Under the pieces are notes generated by a model, which worked only from the letters and a program-made list of their open reading frames with translations, searched no databases and was not told the DNA's origin. Shown here piece after piece: positions 1 through 57,497 of a stretch of DNA of 64,000 nt; position 1 is the stretch's first letter; each line of letters begins with the position of its first letter. The position numbers and the translations under genes are program-made. The DNA comes from Clostridiaceae bacterium (lineage in GTDB: Bacteria; Bacillota; Clostridia; Saccharofermentanales; DTU023). Location of the stretch: assembly GCA_012518795.1 (NCBI GenBank), contig JAAYRL010000029.1, positions 20,607-84,606 on the forward strand. Direction: 5' to 3'.

Positions 1-1
1 A

Positions 2-2641
2 ATTGCCCAAAGAGGTTCTTGGGAAATCAGATATGAAAGAGTAAACCCGGAGCAAGCTGCCTCAATGCTTGAATCACCTGATATCAAGAAATATGTTTCA
101 AGTCAGGAAATCGGTTATGCCAAGATAGAAAGCGAGAATCCATATAAGCCGTATCTTTATATCATGGGTGTCAGCTCTGACTTTACGGATATCGTTCCGT
201 TGTATTTAACTGAAGGTAAAATGCCTAGTGAGCCGAATGAAATTATTTTACCGCAACATTTTTTAGACAGCAGGCTAGAAAAATTTGAAATTGGCGATCA
301 GTTAAATCTGGAGGTAGGAAAACGATTTTTGCTCGACGATAGATTGGATTATACAGGTAATGCAGGTAGTGAAATTGTAAACGAAGAACCAGTAGATTAC
401 TCACAAGAATTATCCCAGGATGATTCGTATTTTTTAGATGAAGAAAACCCGACTGAAGAATTAAGAGATACAGAAAGCAAAACTTATACAATAACCGGAT
501 TTTTTAAACGCTACGGTTTAGAAAATTATAGTGCACCGGGTTATACCGCGATAACGGCAATCGATCAAACTGCTGAATCTAATTTAAATAGCTATTATCT
601 GGAATTTAATAATCCAAAACAAGTTTTTGAGTTTCAGAAAAAATATCCGGTTGAAGGAACTTCTGAAGTACATAATGAATTATTAAGATATTATGGGCTT
701 AGCAGAAATGATAATTTTAATGCCACGCTTTTATCTTTAACCATTATTTTCTTAGCAATGATTCTAATCAGTTCGATTGTATTAATTAACAATGCCTTTA
801 CCATTTCTTTAGCTGAAAGAACCAAACAGTTCGGCTTATTATCCTCGATCGGTGCCAGTAAAAAACAATTGAGGCGGACAGTTTTAACTGAAGCAATGAT
901 GATTAGTTTAATCGGTATTCCGTTAGGTATATTAGGTGGATTGTTAGGTATAAAGCTAACATTGATGGTAGTTAGCGGGCTTATAAAAGACATGATTACA
1001 TCTTCAGTTGTTTCTAATGTTGGTTTAGAGCTGATAATATCAAGTAAAGCTATTATAGCGTCAGTGATAATTGCTTTATTTACAGTTTTGATTTCGGCTT
1101 GGATTCCGGCAAAACGCGCTTCACGTATCACGGTAATGGATACTATCCGTCAAACTCAAGATATAGTTGCTAAACCGGTAAAAGTTTCAAAAGTAACTTA
1201 CAAATTGTTCGGCTTGCCGGGCTATTTAGCTACCAAGTATTTCAAGCGCAGCCGAAAAAAATATCGTTCAACGATTATCAGTTTGAGCTTGAGTATTTTG
1301 CTGTTCATTTCAGCTTATACTTTCACTTCAATGATGACAGATTCGATTGAAAATATTTATTCAACTAAAGTTTCGGATTTGGAATATTATTGCAGGCCGG
1401 AAGCAGAAGATGATAGTGAAATTATAGTAGAGTTAAATACAATGCATAATCGAATCAAGGATTTAGATCATGTAACCTCGGTTAATTATACTGCCTCATT
1501 GATGCAAAATTATGTGGTGAATAAGGATAATTTAACATCTGAATATATCGAATATATACTTCAGGATCCGAATACAATGTATTATTTATACCAAATCAAG
1601 GATGGTCAACAAGAAAAATATTTGCTTTCTATTAATACCGTGTTTATAGAAGATGACATTTTTGCTGAGATGTTAGAACAGTTTAATATAGATTTGACTG
1701 AATATTTGAGTTCAACTGAATTGTTGCCGATTGTTAAAAACAATGCTTTTATATTTGATATGGCAGCTAGAAAGTATGTCACGTACGATGTCTTTAACAC
1801 AAGTAAAAAAAGTAAAATTGAAATTGAACTCGTGAATTTGCAAGATATTCCGGATAAATATTTGAGTGAAGTTATTAGCGATGAAGACTCCACAGCTGAT
1901 TCTATATTTGTTTTTAGAAATTATGCTGAAGATACAATACAAGAAGTACCTTTATCAGAAGCTTTTGAGTCAAAACAAATGATTGAAGCGGAATATTTTA
2001 CAGATAAAATGCCGAGTTTTCTCGATAATAGATCCGATATAACGCTGCTTTTCCCAATCAGTAAAATGGCCGATTTAGCAGTAGATTCGAGTTTATTCAG
2101 TATCAGTTTTCATATCAATTCAGATAATCATCAACTGACGGAAAATGCTTTAGCCCAATATAATGCTGAATTGGCAAATAGAGGTGACTATGTAAATCAT
2201 GTTGCATATCGTCAAAATAATAAGAATTTAGTAACGATAGTAAATATATTCTGTTACGGTTTTATCGTTTTGATTTCATTAATTGCTTTGACTAATGTGT
2301 TTAATACGATAACGACCAATATCAATTTGAGAACACGGGATTTCGCAATGTTGAAAAGTGTCGGCATGTCAAATAAAGGCATCCGTAAAATGATGATTTA
2401 TGAATGTCTGCTATATGGAACAAGATCACTACTGTGGGGGTTACCACTGTCACTCGGAGTTTCTTATTTGATTTACCGGGCAATTGATCGCAGTGTAGAA
2501 CAATCCTATACGATACCGTGGATAGCAATAGCAATCGTCTGTATTTCAGTGTTCCTGTTTGTTGCAATCAGCATGATTTATGCCTTACGCCAATTCAACA
2601 AAAAGAACATTCTCGAATCTTTAAAAAATGAAAACGATTGA
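2..2641 (+). CDS. FtsX-family ABC transporter permease, large double-FtsX-domain type; 5' end runs off the window
   Basis: The frame is open from nt 2 into the listed ATG at 65 (IAQRGSWEIRYERVNPEQAAS precedes MLESPD), so the gene is truncated by the window edge. Two FtsX signature blocks are present (ERTKQFGLLSSIGASKKQL and RTRDFAMLKSVGMSNKGI). Each sits in a cluster of hydrophobic helices, and a large soluble domain separates the two. Confidence 0.75.
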   Translation: MAQRGSWEIRYERVNPEQAASMLESPDIKKYVSSQEIGYAKIESENPYKPYLYIMGVSSDFTDIVPLYLTEGKMPSEPNEIILPQHFLDSRLEKFEIGDQLNLEVGKRFLLDDRLDYTGNAGSEIVNEEPVDYSQELSQDDSYFLDEENPTEELRDTESKTYTITGFFKRYGLENYSAPGYTAITAIDQTAESNLNSYYLEFNNPKQVFEFQKKYPVEGTSEVHNELLRYYGLSRNDNFNATLLSLTIIFLAMILISSIVLINNAFTISLAERTKQFGLLSSIGASKKQLRRTVLTEAMMISLIGIPLGILGGLLGIKLTLMVVSGLIKDMITSSVVSNVGLELIISSKAIIASVIIALFTVLISAWIPAKRASRITVMDTIRQTQDIVAKPVKVSKVTYKLFGLPGYLATKYFKRSRKKYRSTIISLSLSILLFISAYTFTSMMTDSIENIYSTKVSDLEYYCRPEAEDDSEIIVELNTMHNRIKDLDHVTSVNYTASLMQNYVVNKDNLTSEYIEYILQDPNTMYYLYQIKDGQQEKYLLSINTVFIEDDIFAEMLEQFNIDLTEYLSSTELLPIVKNNAFIFDMAARKYVTYDVFNTSKKSKIEIELVNLQDIPDKYLSEVISDEDSTADSIFVFRNYAEDTIQEVPLSEAFESKQMIEAEYFTDKMPSFLDNRSDITLLFPISKMADLAVDSSLFSISFHINSDNHQLTENALAQYNAELANRGDYVNHVAYRQNNKNLVTIVNIFCYGFIVLISLIALTNVFNTITTNINLRTRDFAMLKSVGMSNKGIRKMMIYECLLYGTRSLLWGLPLSLGVSYLIYRAIDRSVEQSYTIPWIAIAIVCISVFLFVAISMIYALRQFNKKNILESLKNEND

Positions 2642-2659
2642 TAATTTGAAAGTATTAAT

Positions 2660-2992
2660 GTGCACACTTTTTAAGCTTAGGCGACAATCTGACGGTTCAA
2701 CCTTAAATAGTGTGCAGGTTCTTTAATAAAACCGGTTTTTTCGGGCCATATGTGCACACTTTTTAAGCTTAGACTGCAATCTGACGGTTCAACCTTAAAT
2801 AGTGTGCAGGTTCTTTAATAAAACCGGTTTTTTCGGGCCATATGTGCACACTTTTTAAGGTTAGACTGGATTTCTCCGGTATAGGCTTAAATAGTGTGCA
2901 TGCCCTTTAATAAAACCGACTTTTCTGAGTCAAATGTGCACACTTTTTAAGCTTAGGCGGTAATCTGACGGTTCAACCTTAAATAGTGTGCA
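2660..2992 (+). repeat. Array A: 4 tandem copies (92-bp period) of a ~57-nt hairpin element with arms GTGCACACTTTTTAAG / CTTAAATAGTGTGCA
   Basis: GTGCACAC starts at 2660, 2752, 2844 and 2936, an exact 92-bp spacing. The arms are invariant and the 26-nt interiors differ between copies. The 35-nt linkers (ggttctttaataaaaccggttttttcgggccatat) are repeated. The array fills the gap between convergent genes. Confidence 0.9.
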
Positions 2993-3012
2993 TACCCTTT
3001 CTCTTGATAATT

Positions 3013-4245
3013 CTAATAATCAACTTCAAACTCTGTAGGTAAGGGATTATCATGCATATATTTGAATACGCCGCAAATTATTTGAGCGGCTTCTTCGATT
3101 AAAGCATCGTCTTGAGTAGCAGTATAGCTTGTTCTTAACAAACATTTGCCATCGGCAACTGCCGGCGGTAATACCGGATTAACATAAACTCCTGCTTCAA
3201 GCAGTAGTTTTGCTGCATACAGAGTTTGAGCTACAGTTCCTGTTATTAATGGAATAATTGGAATAATATCGTTATTACTGTCATGTACTTCAACATAGGG
3301 ACATTCTTTCAGCAATGCTCGCATTTTTGCTGTGATTTGGTGAATACGTGTAACTCTTTCCGGTTCAGAACGCAAGATACGCAAAGCTTCATGAGCTGCC
3401 GCAACCTGTCCGGGAGGAATTGAAGCACTGAAAATAAACGGTCTGGCAATATGTTTAATATAATTGATTACTCTTTCTTCGCCGGCAATACATCCACCGA
3501 GTGAAGCATAGCTTTTGGAGAAAGTATTCATGATTAAATCGACTTCATCTTCTAAGTCGAAATATTCAGCCGTACCACGGCCGTGTTTGCCCAAAACACC
3601 GAGTCCGTGGGCATCATCAACCATGATTCTGGCTTTGTATTTTTTAGCTAATTCGACTATCTTTGGAAGATTGCAAATTTCACCTTCCATACTAAATACT
3701 CCGTCAGTAACAATTAAAATACCACCGGATGTTGCTTTCTCAGAACAGCGAATCAATAATTTTTCTAAAGCATCCATATCGTTATGGGCATATTTGTAGG
3801 TTTTCGCAAAACTTAATCTAGTCCCATCAACGATACTGGCATGATTCAAGTCATCTGAGAGAATGAAATCATTCCTACCGGCAAGTGCAGAAATAACAGA
3901 AAGATTGGTTTGAAAACCGGTAGAAAAACTTAAACATGCCTCTTTCTGCAAGAATTCAGCTTGTTCACGTTCTAAATCACCATGCAATTTTAAAGTGCCG
4001 TTTAAAAATCTTGAACCTGAACAACCGCTGCCATAATGCTCAATGGCATCTTGAGCGGCTTTTTTTACGCGAGGATCGCCGGTTAAACCTAAATAATTGT
4101 TTGATCCCAGCATGATGGTCCGACGACCATCCATTTCCACTATATTATCTTGTTGGGTTGTTAATTCATGGAAATAGGGATAAACACCCATTTCTTTTGC
4201 TTGATCGACGACATAATAGTCATAACATTTTTGAAAAATATCCAT
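3013..4245 (-). CDS. PLP-dependent alpha-oxoamine synthase, serine palmitoyltransferase-like
   Basis: 410 aa. Motifs GSGCSGSRFLNGT, NHASIVDG, DDAHGLG and TFSKS (PLP lysine). By eye, end-to-end similarity is closer to bacterial Spt (Sphingomonas/Sphingobacterium/Bacteroides type) than to BioF or Kbl. SD-like gagg lies upstream of the ATG. Confidence 0.7.
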   Translation of the reverse strand: MDIFQKCYDYYVVDQAKEMGVYPYFHELTTQQDNIVEMDGRRTIMLGSNNYLGLTGDPRVKKAAQDAIEHYGSGCSGSRFLNGTLKLHGDLEREQAEFLQKEACLSFSTGFQTNLSVISALAGRNDFILSDDLNHASIVDGTRLSFAKTYKYAHNDMDALEKLLIRCSEKATSGGILIVTDGVFSMEGEICNLPKIVELAKKYKARIMVDDAHGLGVLGKHGRGTAEYFDLEDEVDLIMNTFSKSYASLGGCIAGEERVINYIKHIARPFIFSASIPPGQVAAAHEALRILRSEPERVTRIHQITAKMRALLKECPYVEVHDSNNDIIPIIPLITGTVAQTLYAAKLLLEAGVYVNPVLPPAVADGKCLLRTSYTATQDDALIEEAAQIICGVFKYMHDNPLPTEFEVDY

Positions 4246-4361
4246 TTACAAACCTCATTTACTTACTTAATATACTGTTTATTGTTGTCCGTTCCATTAA
4301 GACGATTTTTTGTTGTTAAGTATGTATTCTGTATTATACATTTTTTTTGCGAATGTTTGCT

Positions 4362-5219
4362 TTACGAAGCATACATTTTATATAAAATATAGTTTATCAA
4401 TCTGATTGGTAAAAATTTCGCAATGACTAATGCAGCACGATAGAAGAAACCGAAACTTTGGATCGGTTTAGGCCTGCGTTTTTGGGTTGTAAGTTTAACA
4501 ATACGTTTGGCCAAAGGTTCAATAGGATTCCCGGTTTTTTCATCTTTTTCCATTTTGGCGACTGAATTATAAGGAATTTTACCATAGATATTTAAGCATT
4601 CCTCGGATTCTTCCGATTTAATTCTTTTATCGGTAAAATCGGTTTTGGTATCACCCGGCATCAAAGCTACAGCTTGAATATTGAAAGATCGCAGTTCGTT
4701 ATTCAAAGTTAATACCAATTGGTTAATTGATGCTTTAGTACAGGTATAAAAACTCTGATATGGAATAGGCATCACTGCAGCTACTGATGAAACACAGAGA
4801 ATTCTGCCGCCACCGCTTTGACGTAAATATGGAACAGTTGCTTGAATCATATTAACAGTACCGAAAAAATTGACATCAAATTGCTGCTTAATATCTTCAG
4901 TAGGAGTGAGTTCGATCGGTCCGGATATACCGAAACCTGCATTGCAAATCACAATATTAAGTTGACCACATTCTGCAATAATTTGTCCAACTGCATTTTT
5001 GACGTCAGAAAGTCGAGTAACGTCACCTTTGATATGAGTTACTCCCGGTTGCAAAATTTCACGACGGCTTAATTCGTAGACTCGATAACCATCTTGAGCA
5101 AATAATTTTGCTGTGGTAAATCCGATACCGCCGGAGCCGCCACTGATAAAAACTACAGGTTGCTTATCATTCTTTCGGCTAACTGTACCGGAATTTAAAT
5201 TATCAGATTCTGTTTTCAT
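4362..5219 (-). CDS. Short-chain dehydrogenase/reductase (SDR) with hydrophobic C-terminal tail; candidate 3-keto-sphingoid-base reductase
   Basis: 285 aa. Cofactor site ISGGSGGIGFTTA, NAG motif (CNAG) and catalytic YTCTK. The C-terminal ~35 aa (FGFFYRAALVIAKFLPIRLINYILYKMY) is hydrophobic/amphipathic. The gene lies directly upstream of the Spt-like gene on the same strand. The family call is solid; the substrate is inference. Confidence 0.75.
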   Translation of the reverse strand: MKTESDNLNSGTVSRKNDKQPVVFISGGSGGIGFTTAKLFAQDGYRVYELSRREILQPGVTHIKGDVTRLSDVKNAVGQIIAECGQLNIVICNAGFGISGPIELTPTEDIKQQFDVNFFGTVNMIQATVPYLRQSGGGRILCVSSVAAVMPIPYQSFYTCTKASINQLVLTLNNELRSFNIQAVALMPGDTKTDFTDKRIKSEESEECLNIYGKIPYNSVAKMEKDEKTGNPIEPLAKRIVKLTTQKRRPKPIQSFGFFYRAALVIAKFLPIRLINYILYKMYAS

Positions 5220-5461
5220 ACGTCTTCCTTAAAAAATTAAATAATGAATTATCCTGAAAAATCATTAATTATTAGAAATTGTTGTTCAGGCAAATTATTA
5301 TTAAAAAGTCAATATTATTATAGGCGAAACATGATTGACTTATGTACAAATAGTATAAAATTAAACAAAATATAAGAAAATTCAAATCAGTTCTAATGAT
5401 TAGTAGATCATTTGTCAATAAGTCGTATTTCTAATTATATTTATGCAGATTGTTTTATTAA

Positions 5462-6865
5462 TTAATCTTTCAAATCGGCAATTTCGCCGAGATCGGGCAG
5501 CCAAACGTCAGAACCATCAATAAAAACATCGAGATTATCTTCTCTGGCAGCGGTTTGACCTGCAATAGTGCCAGGAATAGTGCCATCCAATTGACCACGG
5601 ATACTTTCGGCACGCAAAAGACAGAAATCACAAAATGTTTGAACACCGATTTTAAAATCTTCAAAAGAACAAAAAGCGGTTGGATCCTTTTGAACATAAG
5701 GGGAGATCAAGGCAATTGTTTCAGTAACTTTCAATGAGAAATAATCTGATTCGAAATATTCACGAATCAAATAATCAAAATTTTCTTTATATTGGGCAAA
5801 ATAATCCGGATTTTTCATCAGATTATGATACAGAGGACGTTTGAACATAATTTCTCCAGAAGCGGGCGTAAAAATCGGATGATTGATATAGAGTTCGGCA
5901 TCGTTGATTGGTTCCGGCATACCGAGCGAATAAGTTCCGAATGCCAGATTATAATCCCACGGCAGCATGCTGATAATTCCGTTTTCTTCATAGAGAAAAT
6001 AGTTATGTGCGTTTTTACCTAAATAACCATCAAGATTTACAACAAAAACCTGTACCGGAAAGAATTTTAAGACAGAATTAACGTTTACCGCATCTGTTAT
6101 ATTTTCTCCGGTAGATAAAACCTGCAAAGCTCGGATTAACCTTTTTTTATCCTGTTCAGTCGGATTAAATTTTGCTTTGCGGAAAATATTATCATAACTT
6201 TCCGGATTGTCGTCAATATACCTTAACGCAACATCTGCATTTTCAGCATCGATATTTTTGTAGGCCGGCTTATAGAGCTGACCATGATTAACACCGAAAT
6301 TTCTTCTGGCAAAACCTTGTTCCGGTTCTTCAATTGCCAGATAAAGTCCCCAAGCCTGATCATTAATTGTTAGCCAAACATAGCTGGTCAGAGGAGAAGG
6401 AACATCCATAAATGCCATCATGTCATAGGTAATATAAGATTTTAAATAACTGTTATCCTGAAATGAAGAATCTAGGGAGAATTTGTCTAAACCGTAATAA
6501 CTGTTGGTTACATAATGGTCAAATTCGATTTTGAAACTATAGCGTTCGGAGCCATATCTATGTGTTAGACGTAAAGAATTATTGCCTTTTGTTCTAAAAC
6601 CGACATTCTCGAAATACTCACCGTCGATTTCAATATCCGCAAGTTTATATAACTCTGCTCGCGGATCGGCAAGAATTTCATCCCATTGTTCACAGTAAAT
6701 GTTTATATTATGAACACGACTATCATCAAACAAGCGATGCTCATAGCCGGGATTTAGTCCGGCAGGAAGAATCCCCAAATTTCCGTTCATGAATAAAATG
6801 GTAAAGAGGGAAGCAACAATTAGAATTGTAATGATTATTTTGTCGATATGTTTATGTTTTAACAT
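5462..6865 (-). CDS. CotH-family protein (atypical kinase fold), N-terminal membrane anchor or signal
   Basis: 467 aa. An N-terminal hydrophobic helix (IIITILIVASLFTILFM) is followed by CotH-like blocks (FRTKGNNSL, YSFKIEFD, GLDKFSLDS, GQLYKP, NYFLYEENG..LPWDYNLAFG). Confidence 0.75.
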   Translation of the reverse strand: MLKHKHIDKIIITILIVASLFTILFMNGNLGILPAGLNPGYEHRLFDDSRVHNINIYCEQWDEILADPRAELYKLADIEIDGEYFENVGFRTKGNNSLRLTHRYGSERYSFKIEFDHYVTNSYYGLDKFSLDSSFQDNSYLKSYITYDMMAFMDVPSPLTSYVWLTINDQAWGLYLAIEEPEQGFARRNFGVNHGQLYKPAYKNIDAENADVALRYIDDNPESYDNIFRKAKFNPTEQDKKRLIRALQVLSTGENITDAVNVNSVLKFFPVQVFVVNLDGYLGKNAHNYFLYEENGIISMLPWDYNLAFGTYSLGMPEPINDAELYINHPIFTPASGEIMFKRPLYHNLMKNPDYFAQYKENFDYLIREYFESDYFSLKVTETIALISPYVQKDPTAFCSFEDFKIGVQTFCDFCLLRAESIRGQLDGTIPGTIAGQTAAREDNLDVFIDGSDVWLPDLGEIADLKD

Positions 6866-6942
6866 TTTAATTCAGATAATCAATTTATTTTGATTTTCAC
6901 AAATTATGTTGTGCAGGCATATGTAATATTGTTTCAGCTGAA

Positions 6943-7626
6943 TTAACTCATATAATCGCCGTTGTAGGAAACCATCACAGTGTGATTGACACCTTTAATC
7001 GCAGCCAATTCATTAATAAATGAACTGTCGGCTGATTTCAATCTGACCTCATAATTCAGTTCAATCTGTTCGGGCATAATTGTTTTACTCTTAAGTGAAT
7101 AACGCTTGACCGAATTGATGATATGGCTGAGAATTTCTTTTTCAACATCTTCATCAATGCAATGTACAACTAGTATATAAGGTTGTTCATGAGTTTTTGT
7201 ATTGGCAAAAATCAGCATTATTATTCCAATGAAAAAACTGCCGAACAAGGCAAGAGGAATTAAGCCTGCAGCTAGTACGATACCGACGGCAATGCTCCAA
7301 AATAAAAAAGCAATGTCGGATGGTTCTTTGATTGCAGTTCTGAAACGCACGATTGAAAGCGCACCGACCATACCGAGTGATAGAACAATATTACTGGTTA
7401 CTGCCAAAATCAAGAGTGCGGTAATCATGCTGAGAGCGATCAAAGTGATTCCAAAGCTGGCAGAATACATTACTCCTGAATATGTTTTTTTATAAATAAA
7501 AAAGATAAATATGCCGAGTACAAATGAGAGTAGCAATGTAATCAACATATCCATGAGCGGAACTGCGTTGATATTTTCTAAAAAACTTGATTTGAAAATG
7601 TCCTGAAAGGTTATGGTCATATACAT
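6943..7626 (-). CDS. DUF4956-type integral membrane protein
   Basis: 227 aa with about 4-5 TM helices. It has the block LSLGMVGALSIVRFRTAIKEPSDIAFLFWSIAVGI that I associate with DUF4956, and a soluble C-terminal domain. A good SD (aggaga) lies 8 nt upstream of the start. Confidence 0.65.
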   Translation of the reverse strand: MYMTITFQDIFKSSFLENINAVPLMDMLITLLLSFVLGIFIFFIYKKTYSGVMYSASFGITLIALSMITALLILAVTSNIVLSLGMVGALSIVRFRTAIKEPSDIAFLFWSIAVGIVLAAGLIPLALFGSFFIGIIMLIFANTKTHEQPYILVVHCIDEDVEKEILSHIINSVKRYSLKSKTIMPEQIELNYEVRLKSADSSFINELAAIKGVNHTVMVSYNGDYMS

Positions 7627-7653
7627 GAATTTGATCTCCTGTTATTTAATTTG

Positions 7654-8346
7654 TTAATCGTATTTTCTACACATAGAATATTTGGAATAAGCCGTAAGCG
7701 GACGATTGTTCAAGCAGATTGCCATCTTAACGATATCCGGTAAAAATTCATCATATTTTACTTCTAATACTGCAAGTCCATCTGAAATATCAATGTGCTT
7801 ATTTAATTGTAAGAAATTATCGGTTTTGGTCGTTGTCCTTAAGTTTCGATCTATTGTAATTCGTACATTGCCGGGGTGATAAATAAATGCCTCTCGGTCA
7901 TATGTCACGATAGTTTTCGGTTTTAATAATTGTCCTTTTAATTTTGAATAAAATTCAATTGCTAAGGCATCGTTTTTTTGTAAAAGAAAATCAATTTCCG
8001 CATTGAGAATTTGCTGAACTTCGGTTTGAGTCAACGGTACAGTTTGTTTTGCACATTTTCCGTTAATTTTTATTTTGCGTTCTAAACGGATAAAAGAAAA
8101 ATCGTTGTTATAATAGCGAATGCGGAATTTCTCTCGCTGATTGGTTCCTGATATGTTTTGGCTTAAAGCTTTATCATAAGGGGTATCAAAATATAAACTA
8201 CTCACACGGTAGTTACCGTGTGAGTCGGAATGTTTATCATGCCGGAAAAAATTTTTCAGTGTTCGACTTAGTATGAAACCGTCTGCATGATTAATATTAT
8301 ATTTTTTTTCATTACGTAATTTTAACGTTTCTTTTTTCTTAATCAT
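7654..8346 (-). CDS. VTC-domain (polyphosphate polymerase-like, CYTH-like tunnel fold) protein
   Basis: 230 aa and soluble. VTC-type landmarks: RNEKKY near the N-terminus, SSLYFDTP, FRIRYY, LERKIK and VLEVKYD. It sits in the usual VTC-DUF4956-CotH gene order. Confidence 0.65.
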   Translation of the reverse strand: MIKKKETLKLRNEKKYNINHADGFILSRTLKNFFRHDKHSDSHGNYRVSSLYFDTPYDKALSQNISGTNQREKFRIRYYNNDFSFIRLERKIKINGKCAKQTVPLTQTEVQQILNAEIDFLLQKNDALAIEFYSKLKGQLLKPKTIVTYDREAFIYHPGNVRITIDRNLRTTTKTDNFLQLNKHIDISDGLAVLEVKYDEFLPDIVKMAICLNNRPLTAYSKYSMCRKYD

Positions 8347-8455
8347 TTAAAAATATTTCCGGATGATTCAAAATAGTTTTTGTTTTATTTGTTCTTAGAT
8401 CAGTTTTAATTTAGATTTTTTCAGATAGTGATTATTAATTAGTGATTATATAATC

Positions 8456-9316
8456 CTAATCATCATAGTCCGAATCCTCATAATCTGAATTATCTGCTAT
8501 GGGAGCAGCAGTCGGTGCAGCTGTCGGAGCATAATCCGTTTCATCATAATCGGTGTAATCTTCAGTCGTAGCAGCTGTCGGAGCGTAATCTGTCTCATCA
8601 TAATCAGTATCATCTACTGTCGGATCGTAATCTGTTTCATCATAATCGGTGTCATCTACTGTTGGGGCAGTAGTTGGATCATAATCTGTTTCATCATAGT
8701 CCGTTTGATCTTTGGTAGTTGGTACAGTAATTGTTATAGCATTGCTGTCATCTTTATTGTCTTTTTTACTATCTTTATTGTCTTTATGATTATTATCTTT
8801 ACTTTCTTTATCATTATTATCTTTATTGTTAGTGTCAAGTTCTACATCAAGATTTAATTCACTAACTTTTTCTTCGACAGCTTTTCCGATGTTAACGATA
8901 AAATCTTCATTCGGCAAGTAAGAACCTTCCTTTAATTCTAAAGTTAGAGTTTTAGCCTGGCTGCCGACTTCATGAACAAAATATCCGGCAGTATTGATTT
9001 TATCAACTAATTCTTGAAGAACGACAGTTGAATCTTTGCCGATATAATTATCATAACCTTTTACAAGATTTGTACCATCTTTGTTTGTACCACGTACATC
9101 GGTAACCTTACCATTTTTATCATATTCAATTTCAATTTTCGGATTTATTGAAAGTACGATTACACCTCTTTCAGAATCAGTATCTATTTCTTCTAATTTA
9201 GTATTTGACTTTGTTTGGCTACCGCAACTTGTGAGTAAAAGTACCAATAATAACGCTGTGAGGGAAAGTGCCAATACTATCGAAATGATTCCTAATAAAT
9301 TTAATTTTTTATTCAT
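8456..9316 (-). CDS. Lipoprotein with lysine/aspartate-rich linker and C-terminal acidic Asp/Tyr/Thr repeat tail
   Basis: 286 aa. Signal peptide plus lipobox (LLLTSCGS). The linker reads NNKDNNDKESKDNNHKDNKDSKKDNKDD. It is followed by about 8 copies of (T/S)DYDETDYD(P/A)T-like repeats running to the C-terminus. Strong SD aaggag. Confidence 0.7.
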   Translation of the reverse strand: MNKKLNLLGIISIVLALSLTALLLVLLLTSCGSQTKSNTKLEEIDTDSERGVIVLSINPKIEIEYDKNGKVTDVRGTNKDGTNLVKGYDNYIGKDSTVVLQELVDKINTAGYFVHEVGSQAKTLTLELKEGSYLPNEDFIVNIGKAVEEKVSELNLDVELDTNNKDNNDKESKDNNHKDNKDSKKDNKDDSNAITITVPTTKDQTDYDETDYDPTTAPTVDDTDYDETDYDPTVDDTDYDETDYAPTAATTEDYTDYDETDYAPTAAPTAAPIADNSDYEDSDYDD

Positions 9317-9423
9317 TTTTCAATTCTCCTTTTTTATGAATTTTATTTCACAAACCATTTTTATTGTTTTTGGTCTATAGTGATAGATTCCGCAGCAAGT
9401 TTTTTATTATCGGGGTCATTTTT

Positions 9424-9463
9424 TAAAAAAAAGACTATCTCAAAAAAATCTTTTGAAATAGCC
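9424..9463 (-). terminator. Rho-independent terminator downstream of tRNA-Arg
   Basis: The minus strand reads GGCUAUUUC-13 nt loop-GAGAUAGUC (9 bp including 2 G-U pairs), followed by a run of 8 U. Confidence 0.55.
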
Positions 9464-9472
9464 TTTTTTGTC

Positions 9473-9549
<77 letters not shown>

Positions 9550-9847
9550 ACTATTAATTGCTTTGCAATTGTAGGCAATTAAAATAAATCTGTCAAGCAG
9601 TTTATTTGAGTAATAATGCTCGTTTAATTGCAAAGTTAAGTTCCAGTCTAAAGAAAAGGTAATGGAAATTAGTTTTACAAATAATGCTCTTTTGAATTGC
9701 AATTACTAATTAAATATACAACAAATTAACACAATTTGAATGCAATATTTTCTTGTTAATGCTTGCTAAATTCGTTAAAATAACCACAGATGTAAATCAG
9801 CTCTCTTAAATAAAGATGAAGAAAAAGAGATCTTCCAGGAGGTTTAG

Positions 9848-10477
9848 ATGGAAAACGTTTTTATTTTTGATCATCCTTTAATCCAGCACAAAATCTCATA
9901 CATGCGTGATAAAAATACTTCCACGAAAGAGTTCAGAGAATTAACAACCGAAGTATCACGCCTGATGGCATATGAGGTCACAAGAGATCTCCCTTTAAAA
10001 ACTATTGAAATTGAAACTCCGGTGGCTGTTGCCAAAGCACAAATAATTGCCGGAAAAAGTCTTGCTTTGGTTCCGATTTTAAGAGCAGGTCTCGGTATGG
10101 TTGACGGTATGCTGGATTTGATTCCAATGGCTAAGGTTGGTCATATCGGACTTTATCGTGATCCTGTAACTTTGGAAGCGGTTGAATATTATTGTAAATT
10201 ACCGGAAGATATTGAAAGCAGAGATGTCATTCTTTTAGATCCGATGCTTGCAACAGGTGTTTCCGCAGCAGATGCTGTGAGTCAGTTAAAAAAACGCAAT
10301 ATTACTTCAATAAAATTTGTATGCATCATTGCTGCTCCCGAGGGCATTAATAATCTGCAATCCACTCATCCCGATGTGCCGATCTTCTGCGCAGCAAAAG
10401 ATGAGTGCTTAAATGAAGATGCATACATTGTTCCCGGTTTAGGAGATGCAGGCGATCGACTCTTCGGTACAAAGTAA
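9848..10477 (+). CDS. upp: Uracil phosphoribosyltransferase
   Basis: 209 aa. Typical Upp N-terminus ([15 protein letters not shown]), PRPP loop ([13 protein letters not shown]) and C-terminal [18 protein letters not shown] aggagg. Confidence 0.95.
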
Positions 10478-10499
10478 TATCTGTAATAATTAAAGATAA

Positions 10500-11582
10500 T
10501 TATTCAACATGAAAATAAAAAGTTCGTTCAGCAAACTTCAAACGACATTGGTCCGGCAACAGATAAGTTTGATGTTTGTTAAGCTTTTTTTCATCTAAAG
10601 TTGTTCCGTTTGCAGAACCGAGATCTTCTAAAAAATAATGACTGCCATGTCGAGAAATTCTGGCATGTACTCTGCCGATAGTTGATTGAGTTAAAACCAA
10701 ATCACAAATCATTTTATCTCTACCAATCAAAAACTCATCTACCAGAATGAATGCTCGGATTCCTTCACTCTCGGCAAGTGTTCCCGGTGGTCCTTCTGAA
10801 AGCATTGCTAAACGAAACAAATCATCTTGAGGATTTAACGGAACTGTTGTTTCGCTCGGAACAGTCTTTTTATACCTATTTATATTTTTCAAGCGATTTG
10901 CAAATTTTTTAATTAAACTGTTTTTGGCCGGTTTTGATTTTTTATTCGATTTATTATTTTTATGCAATATTGATTTATTTACCGGTTCAGTTAATGGTTC
11001 TATATTCTTCTTTAGTTTTGTGTTTTTAAGATGATTATCTAATAAAATTTTAGCTTCCTTAAAACGATCTTCTAAGATTAATTGATAATGGCCGCTGACA
11101 ACATTTTTCAGTTCAGATTTACTGTCTATAATATAATTCCAAAGATTACCTGATTTTTGCTTAATTGAAGAAACGGGTATTCCAATCTGCAAATCTGAAG
11201 GTATAACAAACCATTGAAGTTCGGTAATAATTGAATGTTTTTTACAAAATGTAATTAACTCGGGTCTAATTAAATTGAGATTTGGTTTTATTAAATGTTG
11301 ATGCAGTTCAGATAAATTATCGGTAATAATTTTTAACAGTGTCAAATAAAAAGATTTTTGCATACCGCAATCAGCAGTTTTAAATTTTTTGGATTCACAC
11401 CAATCAAATAATATATTTTTATCTGTTGAGATGTTAAATAAAAGATAATTTAGCTGACTATTTGAGTCGGAAATCTTGACGAAGTCGTTAGAAAAAGTAA
11501 AGTTTAGTTGTAATAAATGCAGAAGTTCCGACTCCTGCATTTGATTAATCTTTTTCAAATCTAAACGGATATACGGATTCAT
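10500..11582 (-). CDS. FHA-domain protein (C-terminal FHA, uncharacterised N-terminal domain, basic linker)
   Basis: 360 aa. The C-terminal ~90 aa match the FHA pattern (FLIGRD...GRVHARISRHGSHYFLEDLGSANGTTLDEKKL). A Lys/Asn-rich linker precedes it. It is the last gene of the Tad-like operon. Confidence 0.75.
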   Translation of the reverse strand: MNPYIRLDLKKINQMQESELLHLLQLNFTFSNDFVKISDSNSQLNYLLFNISTDKNILFDWCESKKFKTADCGMQKSFYLTLLKIITDNLSELHQHLIKPNLNLIRPELITFCKKHSIITELQWFVIPSDLQIGIPVSSIKQKSGNLWNYIIDSKSELKNVVSGHYQLILEDRFKEAKILLDNHLKNTKLKKNIEPLTEPVNKSILHKNNKSNKKSKPAKNSLIKKFANRLKNINRYKKTVPSETTVPLNPQDDLFRLAMLSEGPPGTLAESEGIRAFILVDEFLIGRDKMICDLVLTQSTIGRVHARISRHGSHYFLEDLGSANGTTLDEKKLNKHQTYLLPDQCRLKFAERTFYFHVE

Positions 11583-11606
11583 TTTGATACGATGTTTTTT
11601 TTGTTA

Positions 11607-11795
11607 TCAGTAGCTGATATCTTCGATTATCGAATAATCGAAAACCTTATTGATCAGGCTTTTAGCAAAGCTTGATAATTGAGTTCTGAAGATTAAGGCA
11701 ACTGCAACCAGTACAGCTATTATTAATACTATTTCCAATGTACCTAAACCTTGTTCGTCTTGTAGTTTTTGTTGAAATTCTTTGTTTTTAAACAT
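11607..11795 (-). CDS. flp: Flp-type (type IVb/Tad) prepilin
   Basis: 62 aa. A polar leader ends in GLG and is followed by TLEIVLIIAVLVAVALIF, which is the G/xxE + hydrophobic helix layout of Flp prepilins. It lies directly downstream of the TadB/C-like gene. Confidence 0.65.
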   Translation of the reverse strand: MFKNKEFQQKLQDEQGLGTLEIVLIIAVLVAVALIFRTQLSSFAKSLINKVFDYSIIEDISY

Positions 11796-11982
11796 GATTT
11801 TTCCCTTTCTAAATATTAAATAATAATTTCTGATTAATAAAATTGACTTGTTATTTAAATGTTTCTATTTATTCGATTAATTAAAATCGGCTTCTTTTCC
11901 TGTTTTCTCCAAACTGAATTTATAACTTAATGCATAAGGTGGCTTTTTAACATAAAAAGTGAAGATAAAATATACTTAAAAG

Positions 11983-13494
11983 TTAAAGCTGCAAATTACT
12001 CATGCTGGCAACAGCAGGCAACATTGCCATGATTATTACAATAAATAAATCTGTTGCCATCGGTAATAACAAAGCCATATTTTTGGTTTGCAAACGACGA
12101 CGCATCGCATTGCGATATAATTGCCAACTGGCGTTAGCTTGTAAATCCAGAATGTCCAATATTTCTTGTCCTCCATCTCGATCATAACGTGCCATTAATT
12201 GCAAAACGGAGGCGATTTCTTCTTGCGGTAAATTTTCTGTTATTTGCAGTACAGCAACAGATGCACTTTCTCCCACACTTAAAGCATGTTTAATCTGCGC
12301 AAGATCAGATTTAAGTTGTGAATTGCGACTATTTTGATATGAATCGATCATTAACCTCAGACTGCGGTCTAGACTGATTCCGCTGCGTAATAGAACAACC
12401 ATTGAATTTAGAAAGGTAGGATATTCAATCCTGATCTGTTGTTTTAACTTATTCTCTCTCCGGATGAGATCTAAATCCTGAATGAACCAAAAAAATAGAG
12501 GAACGATTAATAAAATCGACCAAGAGATTATATTTAGCAAACAAAACACGCAGGCTATCAATGTAATAGTAAAGGTAATAATTATTTTTCTTTTAAGATA
12601 AATCAGCCAAGCATGAGGTTTATTTTGCGATAGAATCCTCACAGTTTCAGCTAAGTTATAACCGAGTTTGGTAGGAGCGTAGGTTAATATAAACTGAGCA
12701 GTAAATGTTATGAATTTTGATTTAGGCTTTTTACCCGATAAATTAATAAAAACATCTTTTTCTTTAAAGCTTGCCGGATTTTGTGCGAAAATAATTAAAG
12801 TCCAGCAAATTGCTAAATGTGCAATCAAGAATATTATTGCCAATAAAGGCCTGCTCCATTTAACTTCCGACAAGGAACTTGCATATGAAGAACTATTTTT
12901 GATCAATACAAATGAAAATATAAAGGGCAAAAATATAAGAATAACTGCTTCACTGTTCTGAGCATTTTGTTCTGACTGAATCTCTTTTTGCATTTGGATT
13001 TCCGCATTTAAGGTACGATGAGTTTGCTTGACGAAAACATCCAGGCGACCACCATAATGATTGAGATAAGGTAAAACATCAAAAAATGCATCACCCGCTT
13101 TGCATTTAAATTGATTTTTCAGATTAAGTAAACAACGATCTAAATCAAGTTGTGCTTTCATGCCTTGATTTAACTGTTTCAAACATTTAGCTAATAGACT
13201 TCTGCGCCCCAATTCTTCTTGGAGACGATTTGATGCTTCCAGCAATGTGACTTCTAAGGTATGTCCTGCCGCCAGCCTGCTGCTCAGATATTCAAGCAAA
13301 ATTTTATACTGCTCATTTTTGGCAGATGCTGTTCTACCCATAATAAATTTAGTTAGACCATAACAGATAATCAACGCTGCGAGAAATATAATCAGGATGC
13401 TTTGATTTTGCAAATCAATCCAAGTCAAAGATGATAAATATACAAAAAGCAAAGCTGGTAATACCATTTTGGAAAATTGTTTTAGATATGACAT
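11983..13494 (-). CDS. TadB/TadC-like platform protein (two T2SS-F-like halves fused)
   Basis: 503 aa polytopic protein. It has two repeated soluble segments of the GspF/T2SSF type (LSSRLAAGHTLEVTLLEASNRL and LLRSGISLDRSLRLMIDSY), each flanked by TM helices. It overlaps the upstream ATPase gene by 13 nt. Confidence 0.65.
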   Translation of the reverse strand: MSYLKQFSKMVLPALLFVYLSSLTWIDLQNQSILIIFLAALIICYGLTKFIMGRTASAKNEQYKILLEYLSSRLAAGHTLEVTLLEASNRLQEELGRRSLLAKCLKQLNQGMKAQLDLDRCLLNLKNQFKCKAGDAFFDVLPYLNHYGGRLDVFVKQTHRTLNAEIQMQKEIQSEQNAQNSEAVILIFLPFIFSFVLIKNSSSYASSLSEVKWSRPLLAIIFLIAHLAICWTLIIFAQNPASFKEKDVFINLSGKKPKSKFITFTAQFILTYAPTKLGYNLAETVRILSQNKPHAWLIYLKRKIIITFTITLIACVFCLLNIISWSILLIVPLFFWFIQDLDLIRRENKLKQQIRIEYPTFLNSMVVLLRSGISLDRSLRLMIDSYQNSRNSQLKSDLAQIKHALSVGESASVAVLQITENLPQEEIASVLQLMARYDRDGGQEILDILDLQANASWQLYRNAMRRRLQTKNMALLLPMATDLFIVIIMAMLPAVASMSNLQL

Positions 13495-14660
13495 ATTAGC
13501 TTGTCTCCTTGCCTGCTAAATAAAAATTCAATTTGAAATTGCTGATTTTCATATCCTGTAATACGACTTATTTCTTGAACAATTCTTTTTCCGTTAGGCA
13601 GTCTGGTCAAGTGAACGTTTACATCAAGTGCCGAGGCGACTAATCTGCGTACAGCGTCCCAAGGCAAACTGGAAGACATCAAGATCATCAAACTGATTCG
13701 ATTCAACATTTCCAAACTGTTGTTTCCGTGTCCGGTAGACATAGATCCCGGATGACCGGTGCTCATTGCTTGAATCATCTCGAAAGCTTCACTTCCTCTG
13801 ATTTCTCCGACTAAAATACGATCCGGTCTTAGTCTTAGTGAAGAACGGATTAATTGGTCCAGTGTAATAGCTCCCTGACCGTCCGGTCCGGACTCTCTGG
13901 CTTCTAAACGTACAAGATTGTCGATTCCTTGCAAATCCAATTCAAGATTATCTTCAATTGTTACGATTCTTTCCTGTTTACCGATATAGGCTGAAAGCGC
14001 ATTGAGAAAAGTTGTTTTCCCTGTCCCGGTACCACCGGAAATAAATATGTTCTTTTTGTTCTGCACAAATTCAATCAATGTATTTGCTGCATGTTCTGTT
14101 AATGTCTGATGTTCGACCAAAGATTCTAAGCGAGGTCTGATCCCCGTAAATCTTCTAATGCTCATAACCGGCCCTTCAGGTGCAGCGGGCGGCAGAACGG
14201 CATGTATCCGTGAGCCGTCAGCTAAACGCATACCGTTAATCGGATTTTGTTCATTTATTAAACGGTTGGCCTTGCCGAAAAAGCGAGTTATCACATGAGT
14301 CAAATGTTCGGTATGATCAAATTTCACTGATGTCTGATAAATTTGACCATCTCTTTCTACAAAGATAGCTTCAGCGCCGTTGACCATAATTTCAGTAATT
14401 GAATTATCATCAATAAACGGTTGCAACAAGTCTAAACCGCGCATTGTATTAAACAATTGATTGATTAATCTTTTTCTTTCCGGCAGATTAAGTTGAGACA
14501 TATCTTGATATTTAGCTACTAGTTTTGTTAATAACTGCTTCAATTCGACGTCAGACAGACGATCAATTTCCGAATATTTAGCGACTAAATGCTCAATGAA
14601 TTTCTGTCGGGCTTGATGATTTAACATATTACTAGACCTGCTTATCTTACTTGGTGTCAT
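13482..14660 (-). CDS. cpaF: CpaF/TadA-family secretion ATPase
   Basis: 392 aa. Walker A is GGTGTGKTT, the Asp box/Walker B region is RPDRILVGEIRGSEA, and the His box is GHPGSMSTGH. These are typical of VirB11/CpaF ATPases. Confidence 0.85.
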   Translation of the reverse strand: MTPSKISRSSNMLNHQARQKFIEHLVAKYSEIDRLSDVELKQLLTKLVAKYQDMSQLNLPERKRLINQLFNTMRGLDLLQPFIDDNSITEIMVNGAEAIFVERDGQIYQTSVKFDHTEHLTHVITRFFGKANRLINEQNPINGMRLADGSRIHAVLPPAAPEGPVMSIRRFTGIRPRLESLVEHQTLTEHAANTLIEFVQNKKNIFISGGTGTGKTTFLNALSAYIGKQERIVTIEDNLELDLQGIDNLVRLEARESGPDGQGAITLDQLIRSSLRLRPDRILVGEIRGSEAFEMIQAMSTGHPGSMSTGHGNNSLEMLNRISLMILMSSSLPWDAVRRLVASALDVNVHLTRLPNGKRIVQEISRITGYENQQFQIEFLFSRQGDKLICHI

Positions 14661-17437: not shown

Positions 17438-17565
17438 TTCTTATCTAGAGTGGTGGAGGGAACGGCCCTGTGAAACCCGGCAACCCTAAGAGGGTGCCAA
17501 TTCCGGCAGGTTATACCTGAGAGATGAGTTCAATAAAGCTTCTCCGGGTGAGAGGCTTTTTTTAT
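17438..17565 (+). promoter_or_regulatory. SAM-I (S-box) riboswitch with intrinsic terminator, leader of metK
   Basis: TTCTTATCTAGAGTGGTGGAGGGAACGGCCCTGTGAAACCCGGCAACC...GGTGCCAATTCCGGCAGG...GAGAGATGAG matches the S-box core. The terminator AGCUUCUC-cggg-GAGAGGCU plus a U run lies at 17537-17563. Confidence 0.9.
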
Positions 17566-41804: not shown

Positions 41805-41840
41805 ATTTGCCGATTTTTCTATAATAAAAAATCGGCAAAT
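41805..41840 (-). terminator. Perfect 14-bp-stem hairpin between the binding-protein and permease genes (attenuating terminator candidate)
   Basis: ATTTGCCGATTTTT-8 nt-AAAAATCGGCAAAT. On the minus strand it is followed by UUAUUAUUAU. Confidence 0.5.
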
Positions 41841-41860: not shown

Positions 41861-42781
41861 TTATTCAGCTTTGATATACTTATCAATGATTTCTTGCAGT
41901 TTACCACTTTCTTCAAGAGCTGCCAAAGCTTCGTTCACTTCTTCCAGAAGAGCATCATTGGTTTTGGTTAAAGCGATTGCATAATCTTCAACTGCATAGT
42001 CAGTTTCGAGGACTTTCAAATTATCATTTGCTGCAGCAAAACTTTTTGCCGGTTCATTATCAATGATAACTGCATCAACTTTGCCTGCGTTGAGTGCAAC
42101 AACAGCATCAGCACCTTTATCAAAAGATTGAACATTCTCTTCACCAAAATCATCCTGAGCATAAAAGTCACCGGTTGTACCGAATTGAGTTCCTATTTTT
42201 TTGTCTGTGAGATCATCCGGACCTTCAATGTCGGAATCCAGAGTTACAATAATTGATTGAATACCGGTAGCATATGAATCTGAAAAATTTACACTTTCTA
42301 AACGCTCTTCTGTTACTGTCATGCCGGCAATTCCACCGTCAACTTTTCCGCTTTCGATTGAGGCGATGATATTAGCAAATTCCATGTCGTGGATTTTCAG
42401 TTCATAGCCTAAATAATCGGCAACTGCTTGAGCGATTTCAGGGTCAATACCGACAATTTCTTCACCTTCATAAAATTCATATGGCGGGAATGCAGCATTG
42501 GTACCCAGATCAAGTACCCCGTCTTCCAATGCTTTGCCGGTTGAGGCATCAGCGGGTTCTTCGTCTGCTTCTGTTTCTTCTTTAGCTTCTGTTGTTTCTT
42601 CTTTAGCTTCTGTTGTTTCTTCTTTAGCTTCTGTTTTTTCTTCTTTAGCTTCAGTTTCTTCTTCTTTAGCTTCAGTTTCTTTTGCCGTATCTTTCTTGCT
42701 ACCACAGGCAGCAACACTCAGCATTAGCAAAATTGCTAAAAGTACTGATAAAATTGATTTTTTGTTAATTGTTTTTTTCAT
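41861..42781 (-). CDS. Amino-acid ABC transporter substrate-binding lipoprotein with acidic 7-aa repeat linker
   Basis: Lipobox LSVAACGS. It is followed by (T/E)TEAKEE x ~6, encoded by 21-bp tandem repeats at about 42573-42690, and then a family-3 SBP domain. The ATG at 42781 (GGAG 5 nt upstream) is preferred over the listed TTG at 42796. Confidence 0.85.
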   Translation of the reverse strand: MKKTINKKSILSVLLAILLMLSVAACGSKKDTAKETEAKEEETEAKEEKTEAKEETTEAKEETTEAKEETEADEEPADASTGKALEDGVLDLGTNAAFPPYEFYEGEEIVGIDPEIAQAVADYLGYELKIHDMEFANIIASIESGKVDGGIAGMTVTEERLESVNFSDSYATGIQSIIVTLDSDIEGPDDLTDKKIGTQFGTTGDFYAQDDFGEENVQSFDKGADAVVALNAGKVDAVIIDNEPAKSFAAANDNLKVLETDYAVEDYAIALTKTNDALLEEVNEALAALEESGKLQEIIDKYIKAE

Positions 42782-42791
42782 GTTTTTCTCC

Positions 42792-42848
42792 TTCAATGTT
42801 TAATTTCTCTTTCAATGTTTAATTTCTCTTTCAATGTTTAATTTTTAT
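42792..42848 (-). repeat. 19-bp tandem repeat x3 forming the RBS-proximal leader of the binding-protein gene
   Basis: The minus strand reads AAATTAAACATTGAA-AGAG / AAATTAAACATTGAA-AGAG / AAATTAAACATTGAA-GGAG-aaaaacATG. Only the proximal copy has a consensus GGAG. Confidence 0.9.
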
Positions 42849-47574: not shown

Positions 47575-47680
47575 ATTTTGGATATAAACAGAAATTATCA
47601 ATTAATTTGTCTGAGTGATATTATGTTAAGATATTGCTCAGATATTTTTATATATGAACTGTTTTTGGATAAGGACTGTC

Positions 47681-57361: not shown

Positions 57362-57497
57362 TTGCTGTAAATTGATTGCTGTAAATTGCATAATTTTTTT
57401 AAATGCTCATAATAGAAAAGATATAGTACAAAAACATAGAGGAAACGAGCTGTTAAAATCATTAATATTAATGTGAAAATCGATTAACTGTTAACAA

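Follow-up and report, generated by a model that had tools for sequence, protein, structure and literature searches.

Tandem arrays of hairpin repeats with constrained arm sequences in Saccharofermentanales from anaerobic digesters

What is the array of four long hairpins that follows a gene for an FtsX-type permease in this DNA, and what holds its inverted arms constant while the sequence that they enclose varies from copy to copy? The array (array A) was first described from the sequence of the window, by which we mean the whole 64-kb stretch of DNA analyzed here, and the original prediction offered three options: a REP/BIME- or MITE-like element, a tandem structured-RNA array, or a phased protein-binding array. 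The REP/BIME-like option is the best fit of these, given that the repeats are intergenic, have alternating inverted arms, are specific to a lineage, vary in presence, and exchange units. We lean toward assigning array A to a family of non-coding palindromic repeats that has not been described before and is restricted to one lineage; the family is similar to REPINs and BIMEs, and its arms would be read by a putative trans-acting protein.

Anatomy of array A and distribution of its family

Direct reading of the sequence places four 92-bp units of array A on the forward strand at positions 2661–2992, and TRF reports a period of 92 bp with 3.6 copies at 2658–2992; the exact period that had been claimed is therefore confirmed, with hairpins starting at 2661, 2753, 2845, and 2937. 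Each unit is planned as a 56-nt inverted repeat, composed of 15-nt arms and a 26-nt interior, followed by a 36-nt linker. The 5' arm is TGCACACTTTTTAAG and the 3' arm is CTTAAATAGTGTGCA, and all of their positions pair apart from one T/T mismatch (pair 9–48), the same fixed mismatch that had been described. The hairpin of unit 1 lies at 2661–2716 (arms 2661–2675 and 2702–2716, interior 2676–2701) and folds as RNA with −17.3 kcal/mol (z −3.4). Sequence reading and folding place the hairpins of units 2 and 4 at 2753–2808 and 2937–2992, and unit 3 (2845–2900) is the odd member, whose interior is better paired than those of the other three (−27.8 kcal/mol). The four variable interiors are each 26 nt and read exactly as originally quoted. 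The linkers were less accurately described: they were said to be 35 nt long and present in every unit, but they are 36 nt by reading and number only three, namely linker 1 (2717–2752, core TAAAACCGGTTTT), linker 2 (2809–2844, same sequence as linker 1), and linker 3 (2901–2936). The palindrome attributed to them, AAAACCGGTTTT, is exact in the first two of these, and the core of the third is instead AAAACCGACTTTT. Past unit 4, direct reading reveals a remnant of a fourth linker of about 8 nt (2993–3000, forward strand; TACCCTTT, compare TGCCCTTT), with which the array ends 12 nt short of the stop codon of the convergent gene.

A search for the arm motif with up to two mismatches yields 16 matches in the window compared with 0.89 expected, a number that none of 100 shuffles reaches, and all 16 fall within array A and a second array, array B, to which 8 of the 16 belong. 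Array B has four units in the opposite orientation (61582–61912, reverse strand; hairpins at 61582, 61674, 61765, and 61857), followed by a linker-like segment (61913–61947, reverse strand) that abuts the stop codon of an FtsX-type gene at 61948–63321. The window holds eight units and no solo copies, and an unfiltered search of the 64 kb with a profile HMM of the unit detects no further copy, either solo or decayed. As had been claimed, array A contains no open reading frame longer than 32 aa (the longest are 22–32 aa). A 22-aa micro-ORF (MCTLFKLR...) that starts at a linker ATG in units 2–3 was dropped, as most other arrays are without that ATG; because the position of the ATG is poorly kept in the other arrays, we consider array A to be non-coding. 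No Rfam family matches the array at its gathering score, and the matches with E ≤ 10 are far sub-threshold noise from plant and animal miRNA hairpins.

A scan for the exact hairpin pattern in one genome per species identifies four MAGs, all from anaerobic digesters, whose labels are Clostridiaceae (two), Saccharofermentanales (one), and "Bacteroidales" (one). The same scan of metagenomes identifies 23 short contigs that all come from one set of (JGI) biogas samples, and viral contigs, phages, and plasmids contain zero matches to the repeat, on which basis we reject a phage, plasmid, or viral origin. The "Bacteroidales" contig encodes a PilT with 93% identity to a protein assigned by name to Saccharofermentanales; we therefore take the label to be wrong and reject a horizontal presence in Bacteroidales in favor of a mis-binned Saccharofermentanales contig, and the family is accordingly confined to Saccharofermentanales. 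The window itself is 100% identical over positions 1–14245 to part of NODE_387 of the biogas-fermenter assembly ERZ773357, and its genes recur on contig k127_908730 of ERZ925066. The collected set comprises about 35 non-redundant arrays of one to seven units each, with 138 hairpins in total, of which 91 are distinct, and the long-read MAG JBMNJV01 alone has at least five arrays (16 units), a lower bound since this count is of the exact pattern. Hundreds of decaying solo copies, the scenario that the original prediction named as reducing the element to a generic selfish repeat, do not appear: the family has few copies, and almost all of them stand in ordered arrays.

The geometry of the family is rigid. 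Arms alternate in orientation in every array, and the spacing between arm starts alternates between 41 and 51 bp nearly everywhere. The interior is 26 nt in 138 units and 27 nt in 4 others, and the linker is 36 nt at 89 of 103 junctions, 35 nt at 9, 40 nt at 1, and 46 nt in one lineage. A spacing variant of 61/102 bp (+10 bp) is found in a single lineage only. The spacings of 41, 51, and 92 bp and those of the variant are near multiples of 10.2 bp, which is suggestive of a helical phasing of the arms (41/51/61 bp), although we keep this as a hint because it is based on one variant lineage. Within the interior, positions T17, T18, A19, C22, and G35 are conserved across the family, and the linker has the consensus tGnycTTTgaTAAAACCGGCTTTTcyGrGcTG. 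The unit has an approximate two-fold symmetry about the center of the hairpin and about the CCGG of the linker. We also compared the repeat by eye with the attC R-box (GTTCAAC), the DnaA box (TTATCC..), the NrdR half-site (ACACTAT), and the Spo0A box; none of these likenesses is family-wide and we reject them all.

Constraint on the arms and tests of structure

The MAG JAAYNE carries a four-unit array orthologous to array B, which allows arms, interiors, and linkers to be compared with the adjacent gene. The arms differ at 7 of 120 positions (6%), the interiors at 42 of 104 (40%), and the linkers at about 38%, compared with 34% divergence at third codon positions of the adjacent FtsX gene, whose protein is 90.8% identical. 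The same ranking is found between adjacent units within arrays, where divergence is 2.0% for the arms, 11.8% for the interior, and 13.4% for the linker (Fisher p ~1e-39 for arms versus interior), with adjacent units having been picked by a loose arm criterion. Given that the scans used for the collection demanded exact arms, the conservation of arms between loci is partly a matter of ascertainment; the within-array and orthologue tests are the least affected by this bias, which they lessen and do not abolish. The interior and linker drift at a roughly neutral rate with their length kept, except for a few positions and the core TAAAACCGGCTTT. The arms are held six to seven times tighter than neutral sites and never show a compensatory change. 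Arms kept this tightly and without compensatory change point to a specific sequence being recognized and not to a stable stem being selected.

Tests of structure agree in finding nothing beyond the arms. Over the 91 distinct hairpins, 77.5% of the cells of the full 25-pair stem are paired, compared with 78.9% in column shuffles. The covariation score of this stem is 0.065 compared with 0.076 in the shuffles, and six interior pairs, 16–41 among them, fail to pair in most sequences; with a stem no better than column shuffles, we reject covariation of the full 25-bp hairpin. RNAalifold retains the arm pairs alone, with zero compensatory changes, and the search for compensatory substitutions among the collected copies that the original prediction had proposed thus returns none in these 91 hairpins. 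The outer bases of the interior were thought to change together and so to lengthen the stem, but the C/C and G/G combinations that result are not pairs, and 16–41 is unpaired in 83 of the 91 members. The fold is as strong after shuffling of the interior (mean z −0.23). A strand preference is rejected, since folding is about equal on the two strands, with the reverse one, if anything, slightly more stable. RNAalifold finds no structure in the linker, where a candidate helix (1–5/27–31) reaches just 63% pairing and has a single isolated pair that covaries, and a CCGG mini-hairpin is on par with shuffles, and both were discarded. There is no evidence for RNA structure beyond the arms, and the structured-RNA option is unsupported, lacking covariation, strand preference, and orientation preference relative to genes.

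Whichever strand is folded, the arms themselves form stable hairpins, with energies of −17 to −28 kcal/mol for RNA and −11.5 to −17 kcal/mol for DNA, and an alternative hairpin, formed across the linker by the 3' arm of one unit and the 5' arm of the next, is about equally stable. The layout of this cross-linker hairpin, A5-GTGTGCA...TGCACAC-T5, resembles a bidirectional terminator. The earlier statement that no U-tract follows the hairpin holds in part: TTCTTTAA comes after the hairpin, and T5 follows the alternative cross-linker one. A scan of the array regions finds no promoter within the unit, and neither array region contains the consensus of an intrinsic terminator (a short GC-rich stem, a loop of 3–8 nt, and a U-tract), the loops of the arrays being 26 or 36 nt and thus beyond the 3–8 nt of intrinsic terminators. 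Clear intrinsic terminators occur elsewhere in the window, for example at 41805–41840 and 47608–47644; terminator matches in the rest of the window are no more numerous than in shuffles, and we therefore used the scan solely to mark individual clear terminators.

Gene context, turnover, and unit exchange

Array A takes up nearly all of the gap between two convergent genes. Upstream is the 3' part of a gene for a MacB/FtsX-type ABC permease of 930 aa (65–2641, forward strand; PF02687 and PF12704), an identification that the Pfam marks support as originally made, and its stop codon lies 19 nt before the array. Downstream is a gene for a class I/II aminotransferase (3013–4245, reverse strand, from the gene call and Pfam marks) with its stop codon 20 nt past the units, and the consensus scan finds no separate terminator between array A and that stop. 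Arrays A and B each follow an FtsX-type gene, and their orientation relative to that gene is the same. The prominence initially given to FtsX is nevertheless misleading, since other arrays are located between nifS and nifU, after serS, before gap, between ftsY and ylxM, and beside ychF, a U32 peptidase gene, a flavodoxin gene, and others. Because the arrays occupy many unrelated intergenic regions, the FtsX gene is a neighbor and not a functional partner, and we reject the association as coincidental. Surveying copies and contexts, as had been suggested, thus located the family in the four MAGs and the biogas metagenomes but revealed no constant gene neighbor.

Both neighboring genes are called for 18 arrays, and with array orientation normalized these comprise 8 arrays between convergent genes, 9 between same-direction genes, and 1 between divergent genes. 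Four of the nine same-direction arrays are co-oriented with the genes and five are anti-oriented, so that no preference for the transcribed strand is apparent. Some arrays are intra-operon (nifS-nifU and ftsY-ylxM). The genes with Pfam marks in the window, which cover about 42 kb (1–34 kb and 53–64 kb), are ordinary chromosomal ones (his, dap, glnA, rho, and mreB), and these marks include neither a transposase domain nor a cas domain. In the 8-kb blocks around the arrays and in these roughly 42 kb of the window we found no RAYT or other transposase besides one IS6-like gene, and no nuclease, cas, or toxin gene is a conserved neighbor at the array loci. The IS6-like transposase, which lies near one array (L008), was rejected as a mobilizer because its ends are unrelated to the repeat. 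The MITE-like option receives no support either: no IS with matching ends was found, and there is no target-site duplication, that is, no direct repeat beside the single-unit copy of one locus (L002) or at array edges, although these observations come from very few cases.

The arrays turn over fast between close relatives. Orthologous loci were fetched via the neighboring proteins and not via the repeat, and at the site of array A the closest relative (FtsX 94% and aminotransferase 91% identical) has no array and carries instead an unrelated 56-nt hairpin, GTGCCAAAAA...TTTTTGGCAC. In a more distant MAG with 85% identity the same site has a single unit, and in another relative it has a classical bidirectional terminator. 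The site of array B has four units in JAAYNE, three tandem hairpins of a GTGYCARAAA family in the sister of JAAYNE (FtsX 95.6% identical), a pair of GTAG-headed hairpins in another relative, and none in a more distant one. Array-free orthologous sites retain no relic of an array, as Smith-Waterman scores equal those of shuffles and nhmmer --max returns nothing. The other hairpin families that sister species have at these sites are also 56 nt with a spacing of 92 bp.

Arrays also swap units among themselves. Unit 3 of array A is identical at 56 of 56 positions to hairpin 1 of a seven-unit array by the RNase Y locus (L020), while it differs from its own neighbors in array A at 11–14 positions. 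A metagenome contig (L040) runs from the aminotransferase gene through units 4 and 3 into the flank of this seven-unit array, with 800 of 800 positions identical, and its junction reflects either true recombination or a join made during assembly via the shared hairpin. In some arrays the hairpins are flipped relative to the linkers, and some units are chimeric.

Relationship to known repeats and candidate functions

Of the known systems, REPINs are a close parallel. Like the arrays, REPINs are composed of inverted conserved sequences at a fixed distance with a less conserved spacer of fixed length, are extragenic, vertically persistent, and lineage-specific, and occur in part as tandem near-identical units that include their flanks, as in the tandem clusters of Pseudomonas fluorescens SBW25 (Bertels and Rainey 2011, PMC3116915). 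The family shares the hairpin-forming inverted pair with its fixed-length spacer but not the maintenance of spacer pairing: REPIN spacers show compensatory changes, of which the arrays have none. The half of a REPIN is a REP, a small palindrome with a GTAG head, whereas the arms here are neither palindromic nor so headed; REPINs are mostly single and present in hundreds of copies, whereas the units here are few and nearly all arrayed; and REPINs have a cognate RAYT, whereas none was found here in the 8-kb blocks and the 42 kb of the window with Pfam marks (PMC3116915). Counted against a REPIN-like model are the low copy number, the lack of a tag, the lack of a palindromic arm, the absence of a transposase by the arrays, and the arrayed state of the copies.

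BIME-2 and atypical BIMEs of E. coli and Stenotrophomonas (Nunvar 2010, PMC2817692) share with the family palindromic units of alternating orientation that are arranged in tandem with short and long segments, a location at the 3' ends of genes, large differences between strains, and hybrid arrays. The regularly spaced, alternating tandem units are thus present here, yet a single arm is not palindromic. BIMEs have another sequence, the host of our family belongs to the Firmicutes, and the inter-REP lengths of Stenotrophomonas BIMEs vary, whereas the 26/36-nt lengths here are nearly invariant (PMC2817692). REPs of the GTAG- and CGTC-tagged superfamilies lie mainly between same-direction and convergent ORFs; they are likewise palindromic, occupy the same niche, pair opposite units into larger structures, and are plausibly transcribed, but each is a GC-rich palindrome of 20–40 bp, whereas the arm here is AT-rich, 15 nt long, and of low copy number (Di Nocera 2013, PMC3733652). 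REPs usually exceed 100 copies per genome, a number far above the at least five arrays (a lower bound) of JBMNJV01. No GTAG or CGTC tag is conserved in the family, in which the arms begin with TGCACAC and end with GTGTGCA and the flanking linker ends are variable. Given the lack of a tag, the non-palindromic arms, the low copy number, the absence of compensatory change, and no RAYT being seen in the stretches covered, the family falls outside the RAYT-linked REP families as they are defined.

Beyond the anatomy, distribution, arm constraint, turnover, and unit exchange observed here, we infer a mechanism of mobility for a REPIN/BIME-like family of this kind. The functional core of the family is the inverted pair of 15-nt arms TGCACACTWTYTAAG, exactly 26 nt apart, which can extrude as a hairpin with a T/T mismatch in single-stranded DNA or RNA, whereas the sequence of the interior and of the 36-nt linker drifts with little restriction while their lengths are kept. 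The arms would be read as sequence by a putative trans-acting protein, such as a transposase or nuclease specific for hairpins, or else a protein that binds DNA. Units would multiply locally by tandem duplication or unequal exchange, units of different arrays would be swapped by recombination through the identical arms, and new arrays would settle in the "terminator niche" of 3' intergenic regions. Array A itself, which fills the gap between two convergent genes where a relative has an ordinary bidirectional terminator, probably replaces such a terminator and is predicted to act as a barrier and 3'-end hairpin for both transcripts. More speculatively, and with considerable doubt, we propose that the arms are the site of a non-RAYT system in Clostridia, specific for hairpins or inverted repeats, that maintains or rewrites the 15-nt arms while the rest drifts neutrally, and that may build 92-bp lattices (102 bp in the variant) in terminator niches as a modular system.

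An alternative that we regard as unlikely, but that survives best, is that the arms and the linker CCGG are operator-like, helically phased sites on double-stranded DNA for a lineage-specific nucleoid, partition, or boundary protein, such that the arrays are kept for chromosome organization and are not selfish. Conservation of the primary sequence and not of pairing, spacing that is rigid while interior and linker drift about neutrally, distances near multiples of 10.2 bp (41, 51, and 92 bp and the lone 61/102-bp variant), and the two-fold symmetry about hairpin center and CCGG are all what such a lattice would display, and E. coli BIMEs bind IHF and gyrase (PMC2817692). The +10-bp variant is a single lineage, however, linkers of 35 and 40 nt exist, and we have no candidate protein. 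In addition, arrays are gained and lost among species whose neighboring proteins are 91–96% identical, with unrelated hairpins in their place, which is hard to fit with a required architecture.

We give somewhat less credence still to the arrays being primarily RNA-level 3'-end elements, selected as bidirectional terminators or mRNA-stabilizing hairpins, with array A as the 3' UTR of the FtsX operon. In favor of this, array A fills a convergent gap with flanks of 19 and 20 nt and no other terminator, a relative carries a typical bidirectional terminator there, the hairpins are stable on both strands with U5 after the cross-linker hairpin, and ordinary intrinsic terminators of the kind found at 41805–41840 and 47608–47644 are used elsewhere in the genome. 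The family shares with bidirectional intrinsic terminators the slot between convergent genes and a hairpin with A- and T-runs across the linker, but its arrays are repeated, conserved in sequence across loci, built with 26/36-nt loops, and also found within operons. Termination requires structure and no fixed 15-nt sequence, and a terminator role cannot account for the constraint on arms that never change in a compensatory manner. A single hairpin would also do, whereas arrays reach seven; orientation between same-direction genes shows no preference (4 versus 5); and some arrays lie within operons, with one further array located in a divergent promoter region. The intra-operon arrays at nifS-nifU and ftsY-ylxM count against a terminator role, as full termination would be harmful there.

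Tandem structured sRNAs, or a processed CRISPR- or ToxI-like array with its specificity in the 26-nt interior, would share the regular layout of repeats and variable segments and the conserved stems around variable loops, but we judge them highly improbable, since the interiors are mutually homologous (T17, T18, A19, C22, and G35 are conserved), often identical within an array, and not unique spacers as in CRISPR, the neighbors are unrelated housekeeping genes at each locus and not a ToxI-like type III system, and covariation, a strand bias in stability, a promoter within the unit, a conserved nuclease, cas, or toxin neighbor, and an Rfam match are all lacking.

REP, BIME, and REPIN repeats are known mainly from Proteobacteria and some other phyla and are tied to RAYT transposases (PMC3733652), and our literature search found no description of repeats of this type in Clostridia. 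The arrays described here are a comparable architecture in uncultured Clostridia that is without the hallmarks of RAYT systems. They also have a practical consequence, as they break short-read assemblies: many lie at contig ends, and contig L040 connects the locus of array A with that of another array through a shared hairpin. In MAGs, rearrangements can therefore be either produced or concealed by the arrays. The arrays are probably also a natural case of repeats replacing intrinsic terminators. Their signature is unusually clean, with slow arms, a drifting remainder of near-fixed length, and units that move between arrays, and that of the arms offers a concrete target for seeking the protein that may read them.

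Array B and hairpins at the corresponding sites in relatives

Array B, at window positions 61582–61947, comprises four units of the same hairpin family as array A in the opposite orientation, with the interior of its unit 4 being of a type unlike that of the other three. Like array A, it lies between convergent genes, here an aminotransferase gene and an FtsX-type gene. In sister species, the intergenic sites of arrays A and B are occupied by a different hairpin family with arms GTGYCARAAA / TTTYTGRCAC (L050 6274–6329; L057 5279–5518). Two members of this family are exactly 56 nt in length, as in the array A/B family, two successive hairpins start 92 bp apart, and part of the interior, CTTCTGTGGATTTCG, is similar to CTTATCCTGGATTTCC of the array A/B family; a comparison of the two families by nhmmer gave no significant similarity. 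The array B site of another relative contains two hairpin copies starting GTAGCAAAAT / GTAGCAGAAT (L059 5252–5553; also L060), and these have a GTAG head, as is usual for REPs of the RAYT type.

An IS6-like insertion sequence encoding a zinc-finger and DDE transposase of 369 aa (L008 4520–5878) is located approximately 270 bp from a two-unit array. The element has inverted ends of 19–27 bp, which bear no relation to the arms of the hairpins, and short tandem repeats GGTTTTCCYATTT on either side.

Assembly, binning, and a junction between arrays

In short-read assemblies, many arrays are found at, or no more than a few hundred bases from, contig ends (L001, L004, L005, L007, L013–L015, L022, L023, L027, L037, L038, and L041). 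The arrays evidently break assemblies, and array copy numbers in short-read MAGs are therefore too low. Two array-bearing contigs, L011 and L015, belong to JAAYSS01, which is labeled Bacteroidales. We conclude that L011 is mis-binned, given that it encodes a PilT sharing 93% identity with a protein from Saccharofermentanales and has a G+C content of 44.7% at this locus; this verdict covers L011, and the G+C content of L015 is 34.9%. The L011 array is a variant with a 102-bp period and a linker of 46 nt.

One contig (L040 11254–12200; ERZ27280805 k141_640973) runs from the aminotransferase gene through units 4 and 3 of array A into the flank of another array, the seven-unit array adjoining the RNase Y gene (L020 1–800). 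The switch occurs at the exact end of the 56-nt hairpin common to both arrays. Given that this common segment is shorter than the assembler k of 141, L040 may be a genuine recombinant in the ERZ27280805 sample.

Other repeats and RNA elements in the window

A SAM (S-box) riboswitch (17438–17530, 81 bits) and its terminator (17535–17559) are located upstream of the S-adenosylmethionine synthetase gene. Short in-frame tandem repeats occur at 8426–8829 (periods of 15–96 bp), which by coordinate conversion from L039 appears to be within an RsgI-like gene, and at 42557–42844 (19–21 bp), where the stretch 42557–42796 falls inside an ORF; both are presumed to encode low-complexity protein linker regions. 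Five direct repeats of 31 bp (TAGTAAATGAATTGCTAATAAAACTATCCT) lie between dapA and dapB (55361–55503), a related motif, TAAATTGATTGCTG, is present in 2.5 copies at 57354–57388, and three copies of GATGATATTATTCTAGGA (57496–57558) directly precede the start of a type III glutamine synthetase gene. These three sets of repeats may be regulator binding sites.
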